A stretch of 64,000 nucleotides of DNA from Gammaproteobacteria bacterium (GTDB lineage: Bacteria; Pseudomonadota; Gammaproteobacteria; JAJPIJ01). The stretch spans positions 108,927 through 172,926 of the forward strand of contig JAJVHZ010000011.1 of the NCBI GenBank assembly GCA_022072255.1, read 5' to 3'. A program made the position numbers and the translations under genes. This document shows positions 28,264-37,675 of the stretch, piece after piece; position 1 is the stretch's first letter; each line of letters begins with the position of its first letter. The notes under the pieces are model-generated. The model was not told where the DNA came from, did no database searches, and saw nothing but the letters and a program-made list of their open reading frames with translations.

Positions 28264-28524
28264 CCGCGGCGATTCATCGCGGGTCGGAGGATGGCCTCCG
28301 GTACGGGAGGGTGTGACAGAAATGACCTGCAATCTGCACCAGCCGGGGATGATCGCTCACTGACGTCGAATCAATCAATCGCCAGGCATGGCACGTACGT
28401 CGTCTTCCTGACTGCGCGGGCGGAGTCGGCTCGCGAAACGCGCCTGCAGCATTCGGCCGCGTCTGCCCCGGGCCCGGCTCCACGTGTATAGTGAACGCCA
28501 AAAAACGGCCGGAGCGCGCGTGCG

Positions 28525-28785
28525 ATGCAGGCGGTTGTCATCATCCTCAAGGTTCTGGCGCTGGCGCTGGCGATCGCGGGGCTGGTGGGGGGCGGGATCT
28601 GCACCCTGTGCGGTGCGGTGTGGTCGTTCGAGGACGCCGGTGTCGGCATGCAGATCGTGGGGATCTCGCTGCTGTTCGCCGTGCCGTCGTATTTCCTGAC
28701 GCGGCTGCTTTGGCGTTCGTTGAATCGGCGACCGGGCGCCGCGCCGGCGCCGAGTGAGCCTGCATCGTCGGGCGACGGCCCCTAG
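28525..28785 (+). CDS. Small membrane protein, paralog A (86 aa; signal-peptide-like N-terminus ending in GGGIC, then a second TM helix)
   Basis: MQAVVIILKVLALALAIAGLVGGGICTLCGAVWSFE...MQIVGISLLFAVPSYFLTRLLWRSLNRRPG aligns with the next ORF, sharing [KR]VL.L.L...LV.G.GIC.....F...M...I..L..L...F......R.L.R.R.G. Confidence 0.5.
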   Translation: MQAVVIILKVLALALAIAGLVGGGICTLCGAVWSFEDAGVGMQIVGISLLFAVPSYFLTRLLWRSLNRRPGAAPAPSEPASSGDGP

Positions 28786-28793
28786 GTTGGCGC

Positions 28794-29045
28794 ATGGAAA
28801 CGATCTTCACGGCGCTGTGGTGGATTATCCGGGTGCTCATCCTGCTGGGACTGTTCTGCCTGGTCGCCGGCACCGGCATCTGCGGCTACATCTACTACGA
28901 ATTCAGCGCCCAGTATCACCGCCCGGAAATGGCGGACTGGCTGTTCATCGGGGCGCTGGGGTCGCTGGCTGCGCTGTTCGGGTGGATCTTCTGGGTCGTG
29001 AAGCGAGCCTTGTTCCGGCCGCGGTCAGGCGCTGATGGCTCCTGA
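28794..29045 (+). CDS. Small membrane protein, paralog B (83 aa)
   Basis: METIFTALWWIIRVLILLGLFCLVAGTGICGYIYYEFS...MADWLFIGALGSLAALFGWIFWVVKRALFRPRSG. Lies 9 bp after paralog A, and its stop overlaps the next gene by 11 nt. Confidence 0.5.
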   Translation: METIFTALWWIIRVLILLGLFCLVAGTGICGYIYYEFSAQYHRPEMADWLFIGALGSLAALFGWIFWVVKRALFRPRSGADGS

Positions 29046-29778
29046 ATACGCGCTGGTCCTGCACGCGGCCTTCGAATGGGCCGCCATCCTCGCCGGCGCC
29101 CGGCTGTACTTTCGCGAGCGCGGGCTGCATGGCTTGCGCGCCGCCCTGCAGCCGCAGAATTACGCGGTGCTGACCGGCTGCCTGCTCGGCGCGGCGATCG
29201 GCAACAAGGCGGTGTTCTGGGTGGAGAATCCGCAGCTCTGGGACCCGGACTCCGGCGTCGCGCAGTTCTTCCTGGGCGGACAGTCGATGGTCGGCGGCCT
29301 GGTGGGCGGCTATCTCGGCGTCGAACTCGGCAAGGTGGTCGCGGCCGTGCGCCATTCCACCGGAGATCATTTCGTCTTCCCGATCCTGCTGGGGATCGCG
29401 ATCGGGCGCCTCGGATGCCTGCTCGCCGGACTTCACGATCAAACCTTCGGCGTCCAGACCAGCCTGGCCTGGGGTATCGATTTCGGCGACGGAATAAGGC
29501 GGCATCCCACCCAGCTCTACGAGATCCTGTTCGCGGGGCTGCTCTGGTGGGCGTTCCGACGCGCGCGCGCACGGCTGGCGGGCTCCCCGGGCCTGATGTT
29601 CAAGATCCTCCTTGCCGGCTACCTGTCATGGAGGCTGCTTGTCGACGCACTCAAGCCCGTCCCGTACGCCTATCCCATGGGCCTGAGCGGCATACAGATC
29701 GTGTGCGCGGTGGCGCTGGCGTTCTATCTGCCGCTGCTCATTGCGCAGTTGCTGCGGCGCGAGGCGGCGCGCGCATGA
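29035..29778 (+). CDS. Lgt-family (prolipoprotein diacylglyceryl transferase-like) polytopic membrane protein, with a divergent signature
   Basis: RRHPTQLYEILFAGLLWWAF matches the Lgt RHPSQLYE block. IAIGRLGCLLAG occupies the place of the Lgt G-R-x-G-N-F-x-N-G-E signature, with N replaced by C/L. About 7 TM segments. ATG 29035 verified. The stop overlaps the downstream radical SAM start (ATGA). Confidence 0.65.
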   Translation: MAPEYALVLHAAFEWAAILAGARLYFRERGLHGLRAALQPQNYAVLTGCLLGAAIGNKAVFWVENPQLWDPDSGVAQFFLGGQSMVGGLVGGYLGVELGKVVAAVRHSTGDHFVFPILLGIAIGRLGCLLAGLHDQTFGVQTSLAWGIDFGDGIRRHPTQLYEILFAGLLWWAFRRARARLAGSPGLMFKILLAGYLSWRLLVDALKPVPYAYPMGLSGIQIVCAVALAFYLPLLIAQLLRREAARA

Positions 29779-31208
29779 GCCGCAAGGCGAGGCCGTACCT
29801 CTTCTACGACACCACCAGCGCGGTGTGCACGACCTGTCTGCGCGTGATCGAGGCGAAGATCCTGCTCAAGGACGGGAAGGCGTACATGGAGAAGTGGTGT
29901 CCTGCCCACGGCACCGAGCGGGTGCTGGTAAGCGACGATGCCGACTACTACCGGCAGTGCCGCGAGCTGTGGATCAAGCCGCCGGAGATGCCGAATACGT
30001 TCAACACCCGCATGCAATACGGTTGTCCGTACGACTGCGGCCTGTGCCCGGACCACATGCAGCACTCCTGCCTCACGCTGCTGGAACTGACCGATCACTG
30101 CAACCTTCGCTGCCCGATCTGCTACGCAGGTTCGGGGCCGGAGCGCGCGGGCTACCGGACGCTGTCCGAGATCGTGTGCATGCTGGACGCCATCGTCGCC
30201 AACGAGGGCGAGCCGGACGTCGTGCAGCTCTCCGGCGGCGAGCCGACGCTGCATCCGGATTTCTTCGCAGTGCTCGATGCGGCCCGCGCGCGCGGAGTCC
30301 GGCACCTGATGGTGAACACCAACGGCGTGCGCCTGGCGCAGGACCGCGAGTTCTGCGCACGGCTGTCGGAATACCGGAGGGCTTTCGAGGTCTACCTGCA
30401 GTTCGACTCGCGGCGGCCGGAGGCGCTGAAGGAGATGCGCGGCGCGGATCTCACCGGCGTGCGCGAGCAGGCGCTGCAGCATCTCAACGAGTTCGACATT
30501 TCCACCACACTGGTGGTGACGCTGAAGAAGGGCGTCAACGACGAGGAGATCGGCGATATCATCGGCTACGCGCTCGGCCAGTCCTGCGTGCGCGGGGTGA
30601 CGTTGCAGCCGATACAGGACGCCGGCCGTGTGCAGGGCTACGACGCGAGAGTCCATCGGCTGACGGTGAGCGAGATTCGCCGCCGCATCGCCGAGCAGTC
30701 GGGCGTGTTCACGGCCGCGGACATCCTGCCCGTGCCCTGCAACCCGGACACACTGGCCATGGGTTATGCGCTGAAGGTCGGGGGTGAGGTCGTGGCGCTC
30801 ACACGCTACCTCGACCCTGCGGTCCTGGTCGAGGGCGGCCGCAACACGATCAGCTTCGAGCACGACGGCGAATTGAGGCGGCGCGTCTTCGACCTCTTTT
30901 CGACCAACCACTCGCCGGCCTCGCAGGCGAATTGCCTTGCCGAGCTGATGTGCTGCCTGCCCCGCGTCAGTGCGCCCGCGGAGCTGACGTATCACAACGT
31001 CTTCCGCGTCCTCATAGTGCAGTTCATGGACGCGCTGTCGCTGGACATCCGTGCCCTGAAGAAGTCATGCATCCATATCGTCCAGCCCGACGGCCGTCTC
31101 ATCCCCTTCGAGTCGTTCAATCTCCTCTACCGCGACGGCCGTGCCGGGCTGTTGCGGACGCTGCGGCATGAGGTCGTCCGCGCAACCCGGGCGCGCCGGA
31201 CCTCCTGA
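29775..31208 (+). CDS. Radical SAM enzyme with an N-terminal rubredoxin/Zn-ribbon-like Cys2...Cys-His motif and an extra CxxxCxxC motif (multi-cluster radical SAM)
   Basis: Canonical ELTDHCNLRCPICYAGSG (CX3CX2C) plus a glycine-rich SAM motif LSGGEPTLH. Upstream GCPYDCGLCPDH is a second CX3CX2C. N-terminus CTTC...WCPAHG. Further C-terminal cysteines (PVPCNPD, NCLAELMCCLP, KSCIHIV). The track 29076 start is an out-of-frame extension through the Lgt-like gene. Confidence 0.8.
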   Translation: MSRKARPYLFYDTTSAVCTTCLRVIEAKILLKDGKAYMEKWCPAHGTERVLVSDDADYYRQCRELWIKPPEMPNTFNTRMQYGCPYDCGLCPDHMQHSCLTLLELTDHCNLRCPICYAGSGPERAGYRTLSEIVCMLDAIVANEGEPDVVQLSGGEPTLHPDFFAVLDAARARGVRHLMVNTNGVRLAQDREFCARLSEYRRAFEVYLQFDSRRPEALKEMRGADLTGVREQALQHLNEFDISTTLVVTLKKGVNDEEIGDIIGYALGQSCVRGVTLQPIQDAGRVQGYDARVHRLTVSEIRRRIAEQSGVFTAADILPVPCNPDTLAMGYALKVGGEVVALTRYLDPAVLVEGGRNTISFEHDGELRRRVFDLFSTNHSPASQANCLAELMCCLPRVSAPAELTYHNVFRVLIVQFMDALSLDIRALKKSCIHIVQPDGRLIPFESFNLLYRDGRAGLLRTLRHEVVRATRARRTS

Positions 31209-33515: not shown

Positions 33516-33820
33516 CACGCACTGGTGGACGCGAGGCGATGCTGCGCCGGGGACGGGCGGGTGCGGGCGCGGTGATCCGACGACGCGGGCCCCGGGATCC
33601 GGTGCCCGGAACGGCCGGATCTCCGGGCGGCACCATGGCACGTTTCGTGAATCGACCAGACTGATTCTCCACCAATCGGCTGCGCGGCCGCGTCCTTGCC
33701 GGCGCCAGTTGCCGGGAGGATGGCCGAACAGTGGATGTCGCATCGAAAAATCAATAAGTTGTCTTCCGTGCCGGTCACCCCTGGGCGGTGCCCGGCAGCG
33801 CGGGAGTTTTGACGGCACCC

Positions 33821-36800
33821 ATGCGAATCAGAACGAGATTGGCAGTCGCGGCGCTCACGGCCTTCGCGGTGGCTGCCGTGCCGGGCGCATTGTTCTCGTA
33901 CCGGGTGACCCGCGAGCACGTCATCGCCGATGTCGCGCAGGAGGTCTCGGCGCACGTGACATGGCTCGCCACGCTGTTCCAATCCCGCGTGGTCACCGCC
34001 GAAAACACGCTGCCCGCGCTGCAGCGGCTGCTCGCCAGCGCGCTGGCGCAGCCGCCGCGGGCGGGGGAGCTCGAGGAATTCGACCGCCTGTTCGCGGCGG
34101 GCGACGACAGCGTCTACCGCAGTCGCCATGACGCGTTCGACGGCAAACGCGAGGCGGGCGCGTACATTCCGGGCTCCCCGCCGCTCGATGACGATCGCAA
34201 GCGCTTCTACGTGCGCGTGAAGGGAGTTCTCGACACCTTCGGCGCGCACACGAATCCGGATTTCCAGAATGTCTGGCTGCTCGATCACCATCGCGCCCTG
34301 GTGATATTCGATCGCCTGAAGCCGGACTTCGTGTTTCGGATGAGCCGCGAACAGGACTACACGCAGACGGCGTGGATGACCCTGACGGGGCCGGCCGCGA
34401 ACCCCGTGCGTACGCTGCGCTGGACTCCCGTCATTTTCGATCCCGTCCCGCGCACATGGATGGTGAGCGCGGTGTATCCGCTCGATGTCGGCGATGCCTG
34501 GCTCGGATCGGTGGGGTTCGATCTGCCGCTCGCGCAACTGACCGAGACGCTGGTGCACAGCAATCGCGAGTTCTCCGGCGTGGAGCATTTCCTGCTCGAC
34601 GAGAATGGCAGCTTCATATTGGCCGGCCCGTGGCAGTCGCAGCTCATGACGCGCGGACGGGCTCTCCCCGATCTCAGCCGCGAACCGGAACTGGACCGTC
34701 TGCTGCGCTGGCAGGCGACCCTGGACGCGGACGCCGGCCGTTCGCGCGTGGTGACGATGCGCGGCGTGCGCTACCTGGCGGTCCCCGCCACCCTCAAGAC
34801 GCTCAACTGGAAGTACGTCCGCCTCATCCCGTTGTCGGAGGTGCTCGCGCCCGTGCACCAGCTTTTCCTGCTCATCGGCAAGTCGGCCCTGCTGATCATG
34901 CTGTTGAGCGGTGTGGTCGTCGTGCTGGTCACACACGGCACGCTCGTGCAGCCGATATTGCGCCTGGCGACGGCGGCCCGCACCTACGGCAGCGGCGACA
35001 CGCGCATCCGCTTGGGCAAGGGTGGCGACGACGAGCTCGCGGAACTGGCCCTGAGCTTCGATGCGATGGCCGATGGACTGGAGCGCAGCCAGACCGAACT
35101 GCGCCAGCGCGAGGCGCGCTACCGCACCGTCGTGAACAGCGTGCGCGAGGTGATCTTCCAGCTGGGCGGCGAGGGACGGTGGCTGTTTCTCAGCGAGGCG
35201 TGGACCGCGCTGAGCGGGTACGCCATCGAGGACACGCTGGGCCGCAGCGTATACGAGTTCGTCGCCGTCGAGGACGTCGACGGGATCCGGGAACAGATCA
35301 GGGCGCTGACGAACCACGAGATCGAGGCGTGTCGCTGTGAATTCCGGCTCCGCACCCGCTCGGGGGACAGGCTCTGGGTCGAATTCCTCGCACAAACGGC
35401 GCGTTCGAGCGACGGCGAGGCCGTCTTCACGGGCACCATGGACGACGTCAGCGAGCGTTATTACCAGCGCGAGGTCAGCGCGTTGCTGCGACGGGCCGAG
35501 GAGTTCGTCAACGAGGGCTACCGCACCGAGCAGCTGTTGCAGTACTTCTGCGAGAAGCTCGCCTGGCTGTTCGGCTTCCCGCTCGTGGTCGCCGCGCTCA
35601 ACCGGGAGCAGAAGCTCGGCATCGTCGGCCGTTCGGACTGCGAGGTGGACTTCCTGCGCACGCTGAGCGGCTCGAGACGCCAGAACGCCGAGGTCGAGCT
35701 GTACGCGCGCGCGTTCGCAGAGGACAAGCCGCTCACGCTGACCGGCGAGGACGACGAGTCCGGCGAGTGGGCCCGGTCCGCCGCGCGCGCCGGGATCGGC
35801 TCGGCGATGGTCGTCCCAATCCGCATCCACGAGCAGCTCGGCGCGCTGCTCGGATTCCACATGCGCGGCAACGCCGGGCTCGCAGCCGAGCGCGTGCAGC
35901 GCATGGAGGAGCTCTGCCGGCGCATCGGCGGCGTGCTGCGCAGGGCCGAGGATCTGCAGTGGCTGCGGTTGCAGCGCACCGCGCTGGAGTCGGTGGCGAA
36001 CGGCATCATGATCGTGGACACCGATCACGAGGTCATCTGGATCAATCCGGCAATGGAACGGCTGAGCGGCTACCGCCGCGAGGACGTGATCGGCAGGAGT
36101 ACGAGGTTGTTTTCGGCCGGCTTCAGTTCCAGCGCTCAGCCGAGCGAGCTCGCCGAAGCGCGGCGGCGGGGCGGAACGTGGTCCGGAGAGATCGTCAATC
36201 GACGCAAGGACGGCAGCCTCTATACGGTGCACGAAACGGTCACGGCGTTGACCGATGCCTCCGGGAAGATCACGCACTTCGTCGCGGTACAGGCCGATAT
36301 CACCGCGCTGAAGGACGCGGAGGCGCGGCTGCAGCACATGGCCACGCACGATGCGTTGACCGGACTGTCCAATCGTCTGCTGTTCCGCGAACGCCTGAAG
36401 GAGGCGTTCTCGCGCGCCAACCGCTCCGGCAACCAGGTAGCGGTGCTACTGCTCGACCTGGATCGCTTCAAGGCGATCAATGACACCCTCGGCCACATGC
36501 GCGCCGACGAGCTGCTGCAGGCGGTCGCCGGCCGCTTGCACGGCTGCCTGCGCGAACACGACACCGTCGCCCGGCTCGGCGGCGACGAATTCACGGTTCT
36601 GCTGCCGGAGCTGGATACCTCCGAACACGCCGCCGTGGTGGCCGGCAAGATCCTCTCCTCGCTGAGCGAGCCGTTCGATATCGCCGGGCAGCCCGTGACT
36701 ACGACGACCAGCATCGGGATCAGCATCTACCCGCACGACGGCATCGACATCGACGACATACTGCAGCGCGCGGACGCCGCGATGTACCAGTCCAAGGCGA

Positions 36801-37675
36801 TGGGCCGGAACACTTACCAGTTCTACACGCGCGCGATACACGAACGCAGCATGCAGCGCCTGAGCATCGAGAAGGAGTTGCGCCGAGCGGTCGAACACAA
36901 CGAGTTCGTGCTGCATTTCCAGCCGATTGCCGATACCCGCAGCGGCACCATCGTCGGCGCCGAGGCGCTGGTCCGCTGGCGGCATCCCGTGCGGGGAGTG
37001 CTGCCGCCGACGGCGTTCATCGAGGTGGCCGAGGATTCCGGCCTCATACTGGCGATCGGAGACTGGGTGCTGCGTGCCGCGTGCGAGCAGGGCGCGGCGT
37101 GGGAGGCGCAGGGCATCCGGGACATGGAGGTGTCGGTGAATCTTTCGACGCGGCAGTTCCGCCAGTCCGACCTGGTGGAGCGGGTCGCGCACGCGTGCGC
37201 GCATGCGGGATTCAGCTCGCGCAGCATGCACATCGAGCTGACCGAGAGCCTGATGATGGACGACATGGAACAGGGCATAAGGACCATGAAGGCGTTGAAG
37301 GAGCTCGGCGTCAGCATCTCCATCGACGACTTCGGCGTCGGCTACTCGAGCCTTGCCTACCTGAAGCGATTCCCGCTGGACTCGCTGAAGATCGATCGCT
37401 CCTTCATCGAGACGGTGCCGCAGAATTCCGAGGCGACCGCGATCGCCAGCACGATACTGGCGATGGCCCGCACCCTCGGTCTGAGTGTCGTTGCCGAGGG
37501 CGTCGAGAACGAGGCGCAGCTCGAATTCCTGCGCGCGCTGGGCTGTCCGCGTTATCAGGGCTTTCTGCTCGGCAAACCGATGTCCGCCGAGGAACTTGGC
37601 GCATTCATCCGCCGCGGCCGTGCGCGCCAGGCGGAGCTACTCTCGCCGGTCGCGGCGATCCGCCCCGCCATCTAG
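33821..37675 (+). CDS. Large membrane sensor: periplasmic domain-TM-HAMP-PAS-GAF-PAS-GGDEF-EAL
   Basis: Signal/TM MRIRTRLAVAALTAFAVAAVPG, then a ~330-aa periplasmic region and TM LLIMLLSGVVVVLV. GGDEF RLGGDEFTVLL. EAL EALVRW...DDFGVGYSSL. The 33788 track start adds 11 codons. Confidence 0.8.
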   Translation: MRIRTRLAVAALTAFAVAAVPGALFSYRVTREHVIADVAQEVSAHVTWLATLFQSRVVTAENTLPALQRLLASALAQPPRAGELEEFDRLFAAGDDSVYRSRHDAFDGKREAGAYIPGSPPLDDDRKRFYVRVKGVLDTFGAHTNPDFQNVWLLDHHRALVIFDRLKPDFVFRMSREQDYTQTAWMTLTGPAANPVRTLRWTPVIFDPVPRTWMVSAVYPLDVGDAWLGSVGFDLPLAQLTETLVHSNREFSGVEHFLLDENGSFILAGPWQSQLMTRGRALPDLSREPELDRLLRWQATLDADAGRSRVVTMRGVRYLAVPATLKTLNWKYVRLIPLSEVLAPVHQLFLLIGKSALLIMLLSGVVVVLVTHGTLVQPILRLATAARTYGSGDTRIRLGKGGDDELAELALSFDAMADGLERSQTELRQREARYRTVVNSVREVIFQLGGEGRWLFLSEAWTALSGYAIEDTLGRSVYEFVAVEDVDGIREQIRALTNHEIEACRCEFRLRTRSGDRLWVEFLAQTARSSDGEAVFTGTMDDVSERYYQREVSALLRRAEEFVNEGYRTEQLLQYFCEKLAWLFGFPLVVAALNREQKLGIVGRSDCEVDFLRTLSGSRRQNAEVELYARAFAEDKPLTLTGEDDESGEWARSAARAGIGSAMVVPIRIHEQLGALLGFHMRGNAGLAAERVQRMEELCRRIGGVLRRAEDLQWLRLQRTALESVANGIMIVDTDHEVIWINPAMERLSGYRREDVIGRSTRLFSAGFSSSAQPSELAEARRRGGTWSGEIVNRRKDGSLYTVHETVTALTDASGKITHFVAVQADITALKDAEARLQHMATHDALTGLSNRLLFRERLKEAFSRANRSGNQVAVLLLDLDRFKAINDTLGHMRADELLQAVAGRLHGCLREHDTVARLGGDEFTVLLPELDTSEHAAVVAGKILSSLSEPFDIAGQPVTTTTSIGISIYPHDGIDIDDILQRADAAMYQSKAMGRNTYQFYTRAIHERSMQRLSIEKELRRAVEHNEFVLHFQPIADTRSGTIVGAEALVRWRHPVRGVLPPTAFIEVAEDSGLILAIGDWVLRAACEQGAAWEAQGIRDMEVSVNLSTRQFRQSDLVERVAHACAHAGFSSRSMHIELTESLMMDDMEQGIRTMKALKELGVSISIDDFGVGYSSLAYLKRFPLDSLKIDRSFIETVPQNSEATAIASTILAMARTLGLSVVAEGVENEAQLEFLRALGCPRYQGFLLGKPMSAEELGAFIRRGRARQAELLSPVAAIRPAI

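Follow-up and report, generated by a model that had tools for sequence, protein, structure and literature searches.

Co-conservation of a Tes-related radical SAM enzyme, an Lgt paralogue and small cysteine-bearing membrane proteins in a bacterial gene cassette

The papers that reported the discovery of the tetraether synthase of archaea (Tes, or GDGT-MAS) also noted hundreds of bacterial homologues (PMC8941075, PMC9433317). Zeng 2022 listed 456 of them and suggested a part in the synthesis of brGDGTs (branched glycerol dialkyl glycerol tetraethers). Sahonero-Canavesi 2022 found that Tes homologues were absent from producers of diabolic acid and occurred in only 3 of 14 Acidobacteria that produce iso-diabolic acid. 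The synthesis of brGDGTs is the only published idea for the bacterial homologues and it does not fit aerobic Proteobacteria. Here a gene cassette is described from a stretch of 64,000 nucleotides (the window) of a Gammaproteobacteria bacterium (contig JAJVHZ010000011.1), in which a relative of Tes is encoded together with a paralogue of prolipoprotein diacylglyceryl transferase (Lgt) and two small membrane proteins, sP1 and sP2, each carrying a conserved cysteine. Both enzymes belong to known families; what appears to be undescribed is the module of three parts, along with the re-specified clade of Lgt and the small-protein family. Neither the Lgt paralogue nor the small cysteine proteins are mentioned in the papers on Tes homologues, and a full-text literature search found no description of this gene combination, in keeping with the remark in a preliminary description of the window that no such gene combination was on record.

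The structurally defined archaeal enzyme GDGT-MAS (MJ0619, 7TOL/7TOM; NF045702) has a rubredoxin-like site, an N-terminal cluster and the radical SAM CX3CX2C motif (Lloyd 2022), and its Met439 and Tyr459 show full conservation in 1000 archaeal homologues. A functional analogy is offered by Mss, a radical SAM enzyme of Thermotoga and Thermoanaerobacter that has been proposed or shown to join two fatty-acyl tails (Sahonero-Canavesi 2022); it is remotely related to Tes according to its authors, belongs to anaerobes, has no reported Lgt partner and is likened to the present enzyme by description only. In Escherichia coli Lgt (PDB 5AZB/5AZC; PF01790, TIGR00544) the diacylglyceryl moiety sits in a pocket made up of R143, Y235 and R239, which activates the C3-O bond; these residues and E243 do not tolerate mutation. 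The lipobox peptide is proposed to bind at the H103-GGL motif in the side cleft between transmembrane helices 3 and 7, with S261 in contact with H103 (Mao 2016, PMC4728403). In the same study substitutions of H103, Y26, R143, R239, E243 and R246 inactivated the enzyme, R246K among them, and H103 and Y26 proved essential in E. coli, their substitution being lethal.

The cassette is real and is conserved across many bacterial phyla as an Lgt paralogue and a Tes relative, usually accompanied by one to three small cysteine proteins. In the window its four open reading frames (ORFs) lie on the + strand exactly where the preliminary description had placed them (Table 1), and the junctions of 9, -11 and -4 bp given there were confirmed from the sequence. 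The TAG of sP1 (28783-28785) is followed by an 8-nt spacer and the ATG of sP2 at 28794 (9 being start minus end), the Lgt-like ATG at 29035 lies within sP2, whose stop codon (29043-29045) closes an overlap of 11 nt, and the ATGA at 29775-29778 is common to the Lgt-like stop and the start of the radical SAM gene. A scan anchored on the radical SAM enzyme covered one genome per species in 185,579 species and gave at least 585 loci, the best 80 of which were examined. These 80 came from Gamma- and Betaproteobacteria, Myxococcota, Acidobacteriota, Longimicrobium, Elusimicrobiota and Omnitrophota, and their radical SAM enzymes were 59-91% identical to that of the window (59-73% across phyla), the closest named relatives among the matches listed being from Steroidobacteraceae, Nevskia and Chiayiivirga. 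An Lgt-like gene adjoined the radical SAM gene in 75/80, and in four of the remaining five the radical SAM gene lay within ~500 nt of a contig end. A metagenome scan anchored on the Lgt-like gene gave 59 informative loci, that is, loci with at least 600 nt of downstream sequence, and in 52 of these the radical SAM gene adjoined. The Lgt-like stop codon overlapped the radical SAM start in 75 of 112 loci, and in 55 of the 112 the overlap was exactly 4 nt (ATGA-type). With the pairing seen in both directions at these frequencies and all 109 matches to the small-protein family (109/109, see below) on the operon strand, the arrangement is far beyond chance. The conserved co-occurrence on which the preliminary description had made its proposal depend is therefore found across phyla, and one well-defined, highly conserved clade of bacterial Tes homologues is genetically locked to an Lgt paralogue and usually to small cysteine proteins. 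As such the cassette provides a concrete, testable lead on the role of bacterial Tes homologues.

One of the few exceptions to the pairing was seen in an acidobacterial locus, where the ORF 5' of the Tes-like gene (L069:4857-5999) is not Lgt-like and carries a CPLRCEHC motif which suggests a second radical SAM enzyme. In three loci from Archangium/Myxococcaceae (L056, L059, L063) the sole Lgt-like match near the radical SAM gene was weak (~33% identity, E ~1e-14) and on the opposite strand, so that the pairing looks looser or different in myxobacteria.

The radical SAM enzyme of the window contains the Pfam domains Zn_ribbon_HMPTM and Radical_SAM, and its best matches in NCBIfam were the radical SAM (seleno)protein TrsS (NF045646, 314.1 bits against a cut-off of 490) and Tes (NF045702, 268.4 bits against a cut-off of 450). 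It could be aligned over its full length with GDGT-MAS (7TOL; phmmer 4e-63), and an AlphaFold2 model matched 7TOM with a Foldseek E of 2.4e-32 and a TM-score of 0.76, the next family being MoaA at 5.6e-08; the model is of low confidence in residues 354-400, where family-specific cysteines sit. The likeness to GDGT-MAS in fold and length extends to the three N-terminal and radical SAM metal sites. Invariant in the family alignment are the rubredoxin-like C18-x2-C21...C42-x2-H45 (CX2C-X20-CX2H), the N-terminal cluster C84, C88, C91 and H94 (C-X3-C-X2-C-X2-H) and the radical SAM motif C109-x3-C113-x2-C116 (30099-30122). The extra cysteine clusters that had caught the eye in the preliminary description are thus present, and further family-invariant cysteines were found at C99, C271, C322, C393, C394 and C432; C99, C271, C322, C393 and C394 are new with respect to Tes/GDGT-MAS. 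It is in the C-terminal region, which has been remodelled, that other positions set the enzyme apart: Met439 and Tyr459 of GDGT-MAS are replaced by V415 (family-invariant) and I435, while C438, C455 and C470 become I, S and E. Unlike archaeal Tes, the enzyme belongs to bacteria, whose lipids contain ester-linked fatty acids, and its gene is coupled to an Lgt paralogue. TrsS is the nearest curated sister family, being the best-scoring named model (residues 13-456) though below its cut-off. No primary description of the function or partners of TrsS was found in the literature search, which turned up only a table entry in a selenoprotein review, and nothing can therefore be transferred from TrsS to the present enzyme. 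The radical SAM enzyme therefore stands for a clade of its own within the Tes/TrsS family and is neither an orthodox Tes nor a peptide maturase.

The juxtaposition of small, multi-copy cysteine genes with a multi-cluster radical SAM enzyme, along with weak matches to SPASM maturases in NCBIfam, might point to a pathway of the kind that makes RiPPs (peptides that are synthesized ribosomally and modified after translation), in which the small proteins would be precursors whose cysteines are thioether-cross-linked by the radical SAM enzyme, as in sactipeptides and ranthipeptides. This is very improbable. The maturase matches (1e-13 to 1e-7) cover only the generic core (~96-281), no SPASM domain was matched in Pfam at E <= 0.1 and an RRE domain was likewise not found, whereas the whole enzyme, its C-terminal half included, superposes on GDGT-MAS, the match being far better than that to the SPASM maturases. 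Furthermore, as integral membrane proteins of two helices the small proteins have their cysteine in the outer leaflet, away from the cytoplasmic enzyme, and the loci share no conserved gene for a protease or an exporter. Of the domains that the preliminary description had suggested looking for, LGT and Radical_SAM were recovered and SPASM was not detected; identification of the enzyme as a SPASM-type maturase was rejected on the lack of that domain, the core-only matches and the GDGT-MAS fold. A pterin methylase was also considered and rejected, the 'HMPTM' in the old name of the Pfam zinc ribbon going back to an annotated function of MJ0619 that did not prove reproducible in Lloyd 2022.

The Lgt-like protein matched Pfam LGT over its full length (1.9e-16). 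Its AlphaFold2 model, built with 54 homologues, had a predicted local distance difference test score (pLDDT) of 91 and seven long helices, and the loop charges, set against the predicted helices, gave an N-out/C-in orientation, with E97, K100, S108 and D111 as a conserved patch on the cytoplasmic side. Together these show that the paralogue has the LGT domain, the seven-helix fold and the membrane orientation of Lgt. Alignment of 66 family members with E. coli Lgt (residue numbers as in the latter unless stated) revealed a sharp division between what has been kept and what has been replaced. G142, R143, G145 and G150 are kept in 66/66 sequences, so that the G142-R143-x-G145 start of the Lgt signature is common to both families, and among the residues of the donor pocket and its network R143 is kept in at least 65/66, Y235 and R239 in 65/66, and E243 is D or E in 65/66. 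The RHP(T/S)QLYE segment (RHPxQLYE) and the P269 kink are retained as well, and in the protein of the window the donor-pocket residues are R125, Y196 and R200. In contrast, the full canonical signature G142-R-L-G-N-F-I-N-G-E-L-W-G154 is lost, N146 being C in 66/66 and E151-G154 falling in a gap, and most of the periplasmic head domain is absent (a 19-residue gap). The H103-GGL motif and Y26 of canonical Lgt are missing too, with H103 replaced by V in 65/66 and Y26 by H in 65/66; S261 is invariably C and R246, which also belongs to the donor-pocket network, is K in 64/66. The altered active-site signature reported in the preliminary description was thus found to comprise H103V, Y26H and N146C. 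In the numbering of the window protein V86 stands in place of H103, C224 in place of S261 and C128 in place of N146, and H10, V86, C128, C224 and a TGD motif (D111) are family-invariant. Because the donor residues are kept while the V86, C224, histidine and cysteine substitutions are invariant, the donor side is conserved and the acceptor side has been re-specified; the alignment shows a conserved donor pocket beside an acceptor cleft that was rebuilt and then frozen. The Lgt-like protein may still be a diacylglyceryl transferase.

Public databases label these proteins 'prolipoprotein diacylglyceryl transferase', and if the Pfam match is taken with that annotation the gene might simply be the ordinary Lgt of the organism, lying next to the radical SAM gene by accident. 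This was rejected as hardly credible. The protein reaches only 29.3 bits with TIGR00544 (cut-off 118.9) and 31.2 bits with NF000778 (cut-off 334), H103, Y26 and N146 are replaced in essentially all members, and adjacency to the radical SAM gene, to which canonical Lgt is not coupled, is conserved in both directions across phyla. In addition, at least 585 radical SAM loci among the species scanned, with the Lgt-like gene adjoining in nearly all of those examined, is too sparse a distribution for a universal essential gene. That the Lgt-like protein might be the organism's only and canonical Lgt with ordinary lipobox substrates, which the preliminary description had regarded as fatal to its proposal, can accordingly be set aside, and the database label on these paralogues is probably misleading. 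There is no other Lgt-like sequence within the window.

Small two-helix ORFs lie directly 5' of the Lgt-like gene in most proteobacterial loci. In the window the motif is G22-G-G-I-C26-T within the first transmembrane helix of sP1 (cysteine codon 28600-28602) and G26-T-G-I-C30-G in sP2 (28881-28883). As the preliminary description had it, the G-x-G-I-C of both proteins ends the first hydrophobic helix and a second helix follows; Cys26 and Cys30 are near the outer end of the first helix, and the C-terminal tail after the second is basic. Its statement that the two were clear tandem paralogues stands in part. A pairwise BLASTP comparison was not significant (E = 4.9), so that 'clear' is not warranted, but a hidden Markov model (HMM) built without the sequences of the window and of its closest relative L001 gave 38.3 bits for sP1 and 22.0 for sP2, compared with 10.7 for the best of 400 shuffles; they do belong to one family, and their relatedness is visible at the profile level only. 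No match to sP1 was found in Pfam or NCBIfam. The small ORFs are conserved, and public annotations list them among the genes: sP1 matches at 100% identity P0269, 'hypothetical protein IT496_11825' of a gammaproteobacterial metagenome-assembled genome, the L001 orthologue of sP2 is 84% identical, and 106 family clusters were found in the protein database, without a Pfam domain and annotated 'hypothetical protein'.

An iterated HMM search of both strands detected the 109 members in 85 of 163 loci, with none on the opposite strand. In a census of 102 loci in which the enzymes were complete and the sequence upstream was long enough, at least 67 contained a small protein, 49 having one copy, 14 two and four three; of the copies, 83 were upstream of the enzyme genes, five between them and one downstream. 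A strict motif test was positive on the operon strand in 57/102 loci and on the other strand in 1/102. Visual inspection revealed further, divergent copies in Zoogloea, Viridibacterium, Cellvibrio and some Acidobacteria. None of the detected members lacks the cysteine, which is preceded by G at -2 and -4 and followed by a small residue at +1, and the consensus is G(-4)-[FGST]-G(-2)-[LIAVF]-C-[GSTA]-x-x-G(+4), along with a variant that has a three-residue insertion. Among 74 members position -2 is G in 73 and position -1 is L in 24, I in 20, A in 11, V in nine, F in seven and T in two. Outside the motif the proteins diverge fast (mean column identity 24%). The N-terminus resembles a signal peptide, with a basic residue ~17 positions before the cysteine, the loop between the helices is neutral or acidic and the tail after the second helix is basic, a charge layout that puts the cysteine in the outer-leaflet third of the first helix.

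The start of these proteins, a basic residue followed by a hydrophobic stretch of ~15 residues, small residues and an invariant cysteine, is that of classical lipoprotein precursors. The classical lipobox [LVI][ASTVI][GAS]-C is not present, however, the proteins of the window having G-I-C and position -1 being mostly L, I, V or F with A in only 11/74; the candidate acceptors of the Lgt paralogue would thus be G-[LIVAF]-C, as opposed to the lipobox of canonical Lgt. Also unlike classical lipoproteins, the hydrophobic helix runs on past the cysteine, a second transmembrane helix comes after it and there is no mature domain. In view of the bulky -1 residue, the continuing helix and the second transmembrane segment, cleavage by LspA and release of a mature domain are not expected.

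No small protein was found near the enzyme pair in the 13-kb loci of Vicinamibacteria, Elusimicrobiota, Omnitrophota, Longimicrobium and myxobacteria by HMM, motif or manual search, and manual inspection of the ORFs of L069, L071, L072, L075, L076, L078, L080 and the myxobacterial loci produced no convincing candidate; within these 13-kb loci the family thus went undetected in most of the deep-branching lineages. Upstream of the Lgt-like gene of one Elusimicrobiota locus are two paralogous ORFs (L071:3647-4156 and L071:4690-5304) with a zinc-ribbon-like CxxC...CxxC N-terminus and hydrophobic helices but no G-x-C, which may be a different accessory protein where the small cysteine proteins are undetected.

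The spacing of G(-4), C(0) and G(+4) is a helix-packing pattern, and the invariant C128 and C224 of the Lgt paralogue are at a helix depth similar to that of the small-protein cysteine, in the outer-leaflet third, as read only from the secondary-structure string of the model. Taken with the tight translational coupling of the genes, these observations would suit a three-protein trans-membrane complex in which the small protein is a structural subunit docked through its G-x-x-x-C-x-x-x-G face and the three cysteines serve a redox or cofactor role, as a thiol/disulfide or metal site or as a hydrogen-atom relay. Such a complex seems unlikely, as the number of small-protein genes per locus varies from none to three and their position from upstream to between to downstream, which is unusual for an obligate stoichiometric subunit, and their sequences diverge fast outside the motif. 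Multiple copies per locus are typical of substrates, not of stoichiometric subunits.

The reading preferred here, though held tentatively, is that the cassette is a dedicated, non-canonical system of membrane protein-lipid modification that combines S-lipidation of the small proteins with tail chemistry of the Tes type. The catalytic cavity of the Lgt paralogue would lie in the periplasmic leaflet with its phospholipid-donor pocket retained, and the enzyme would bind a glycerophospholipid and transfer its diacylglyceryl moiety to the one cysteine that the small proteins conserve. Placed as it is in G-x-G-[LIVAF]-C-[GSTA]-x-x-G, that cysteine would be at about the depth of the cavity, on a glycine-lined face that could dock in the remodelled side cleft. 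With a bulky -1 residue and a second helix to follow, the product would stay uncleaved, as a lipid-tethered membrane protein and not a classical lipoprotein. The 'tailoring' by the radical SAM enzyme that was postulated in the preliminary description is, given the homology to GDGT-MAS, most likely chemistry on lipid tails: the cytoplasmic, translationally coupled enzyme might abstract hydrogen at the end of an acyl chain, as Tes does, and then couple it to a neighbouring tail to give a macrocycle or to the tail of a lipid in the opposite leaflet to give a membrane-spanning tether. Coupling could precede the transfer, with the donor lipid as substrate, or follow it, with the lipid already bound to the protein. 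An S-diacylglyceryl transfer of this kind to the cysteine of G-x-C would fit the donor pocket, the acceptor cleft, the membrane depth, the multi-copy genes and the lipoprotein genes embedded in some of the cassettes (see below). If so, protein lipidation in bacteria extends beyond Lgt-LspA-Lnt, and radical coupling of tails acts in bacterial envelopes. A more specific version, in which the Tes homologue joins an acyl tail of the cysteine-bound diacylglyceryl group to a second tail by C-C or C-S radical coupling and so stitches the protein to a macrocyclic or membrane-spanning lipid, is rather improbable; if true, the large group of bacterial Tes/GDGT-MAS homologues from organisms that do not make tetraethers would have a function assigned for the first time.

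Several substantial caveats must be applied to the lipidation of the small proteins. The enzyme pair occurs with its invariant residues intact in the Vicinamibacteria, Elusimicrobiota, Omnitrophota, Longimicrobium and myxobacterial loci without a small protein nearby, and the enzymes are therefore not strictly dependent on one encoded in cis. Changes at H103, Y26 and R246 that correspond to those of the present family inactivate E. coli Lgt, so that transferase activity cannot be assumed, and since the radical SAM enzyme is without Met439, Tyr459 and most of the cysteines of the C-terminal cluster region of GDGT-MAS, its chemistry may differ from C-C coupling. Any direct action on the lipid once it is bound to the protein also meets a problem of topology, the radical SAM enzyme being cytoplasmic while the outer leaflet is where both the candidate acceptor cysteine and the cavity of the Lgt type are placed. 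The same problem holds for every reading in which the radical SAM enzyme touches a lipid of the periplasmic leaflet, and archaeal GDGT synthesis presents the same puzzle.

Conservation of the core pair in several phyla without a detectable small protein keeps alive the main alternative, raised in the preliminary description, of a module that modifies lipids only. The radical SAM enzyme would then couple the acyl tails of ordinary phospholipids or modify them in another way, making for example macrocyclic or membrane-spanning diester lipids, and the Lgt-fold protein would be a membrane partner that extracts or presents the lipid or exchanges its head group, with the small proteins as lineage-specific accessory, regulatory or scaffolding subunits and not as substrates. 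This is possible, if somewhat doubtful. Production of membrane-spanning lipids is not known for most of the hosts, such as Massilia, Collimonas, Roseateles, Cellvibrio and Nevskia, and it would be left unexplained why a small protein of several copies keeps an invariant cysteine placed much as in a lipobox and why the acceptor cleft of the Lgt fold is at once remodelled and invariant. Binding of bacterial phospholipids by GDGT-MAS in two tail pockets is in its favour, as is a neighbouring gene for an acyltransferase fusion, found in 34/80 genome loci, which points to phospholipid turnover. A role for bacterial Tes homologues in making membrane-spanning lipids was proposed by Zeng 2022 and Halamka 2022, yet outside the Acidobacteria the homologues are absent from all the diabolic and iso-diabolic acid producers tested, and they are in few of the iso-diabolic Acidobacteria. 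Were the module to act on lipids only, it would represent a new route to unusual bacterial membrane lipids and would bear on lipid biomarkers.

Genes associated with the cassette in other lineages were also surveyed. In Collimonas, Undibacterium, Pseudoduganella and several Rhodocyclales a gene for a lipobox-bearing protein (e.g. ...SLIGGTGC, ...LLAAC) lies between the Lgt-like and radical SAM genes (Table 1). The inserted Collimonas protein (L025) has a significant Sel1 match in Pfam, whereas those of the Rhodocyclales (L010, L026, L013) have no Pfam match, and in Amantichitinum (L083:4751-5982) the insertion encodes two proteins with Sel1 repeats, weakly matched in one of the two. The acyltransferase fusion joins a major facilitator superfamily (MFS) transporter domain to an acyltransferase (MFS_1 + Acyltransferase) and is encoded immediately upstream on the same strand in loci from several orders of Betaproteobacteria, namely from Rhodocyclales, Burkholderiales and Methylotenera (e.g. 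L023:3084-4982, L005, L008, L012, L017, L021, L055, L067). It resembles lysophospholipid transporter and re-acylation proteins and is absent from the window. All-against-all clustering of the neighbouring ORFs was hampered by abundant spurious high-GC ORFs, and the cluster of this fusion was the only one usable. The inserted lipoproteins and the MFS-acyltransferase neighbour link the cassette to envelope lipid and lipoprotein biology, and neither specifies a reaction.

Table 1. Positions of the cassette genes and of associated features; positions without a locus prefix refer to the window
Feature	Position	Strand	Description or basis
Upstream intergenic region	28264..28524	+	261 nt, from mgtE stop to sP1 start
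sP1, 86-aa two-helix membrane protein	28525..28785	+	ORF, family HMM
sP2, 83-aa second member of the small-protein family	28794..29045	+	ORF, family HMM, alignment
Lgt-like seven-helix membrane enzyme, 247 aa	29035..29778	+	Pfam LGT
GDGT-MAS/Tes-like radical SAM enzyme, 477 aa	29775..31208	+	Pfam, NCBIfam, phmmer, Foldseek
Genes inserted between the enzyme genes in other loci	L025:5186-6004, L028:5073-5999, L043:5222-6004, L010:5240-6004, L026:5321-6004, L013:3627-4163		Lipobox seen by eye

The cassette of the window is flanked by mgtE (MgtE_N, CBS and MgtE domains) and rlmKL (THUMP and UPF0020 domains), the Pfam domains confirming the neighbours named in the preliminary description. A GGAG lies ~11 nt 5' of the sP1 ATG and the cassette presumably has its own promoter within the intergenic region upstream of sP1; searches of the cassette and its surroundings, that region included, revealed neither a consensus for a sigma-70 promoter or a terminator nor any Rfam family or inverted repeat. 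The G+C content is 0.63-0.69 over the region and there is no anomaly that would mark a compositional island. In L001, the closest relative of the window with ~89% nucleotide identity, the ~100 nt 5' of sP1 are conserved; farther out it has 2.4 kb of extra genes between mgtE and sP1 (L001:2188-4624), which from their translations only would be dgkA (for diacylglycerol kinase) and genes for a metallophosphoesterase like LpxH and a glycosyltransferase of family 1. A further 1.6 kb between the radical SAM gene and rlmKL (L001:7425-8988) holds, again by translation only, two short-chain dehydrogenase (SDR) genes. As the window is without both blocks, the borders of the cassette are hot spots of gene gain and loss, and in Nevskia and Amantichitinum the neighbours are unrelated. 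The conserved unit is the cassette itself, with variable flanks. Beyond rlmKL, on its 3' side, is a + strand ORF of 1295 residues (33788-37675) that in translation looks like a membrane sensor and has PAS-like regions, a GGDEF motif (RLGGDEFTVLL) and an EAL-type C-terminus, its putative product being a large protein of cyclic di-GMP turnover.

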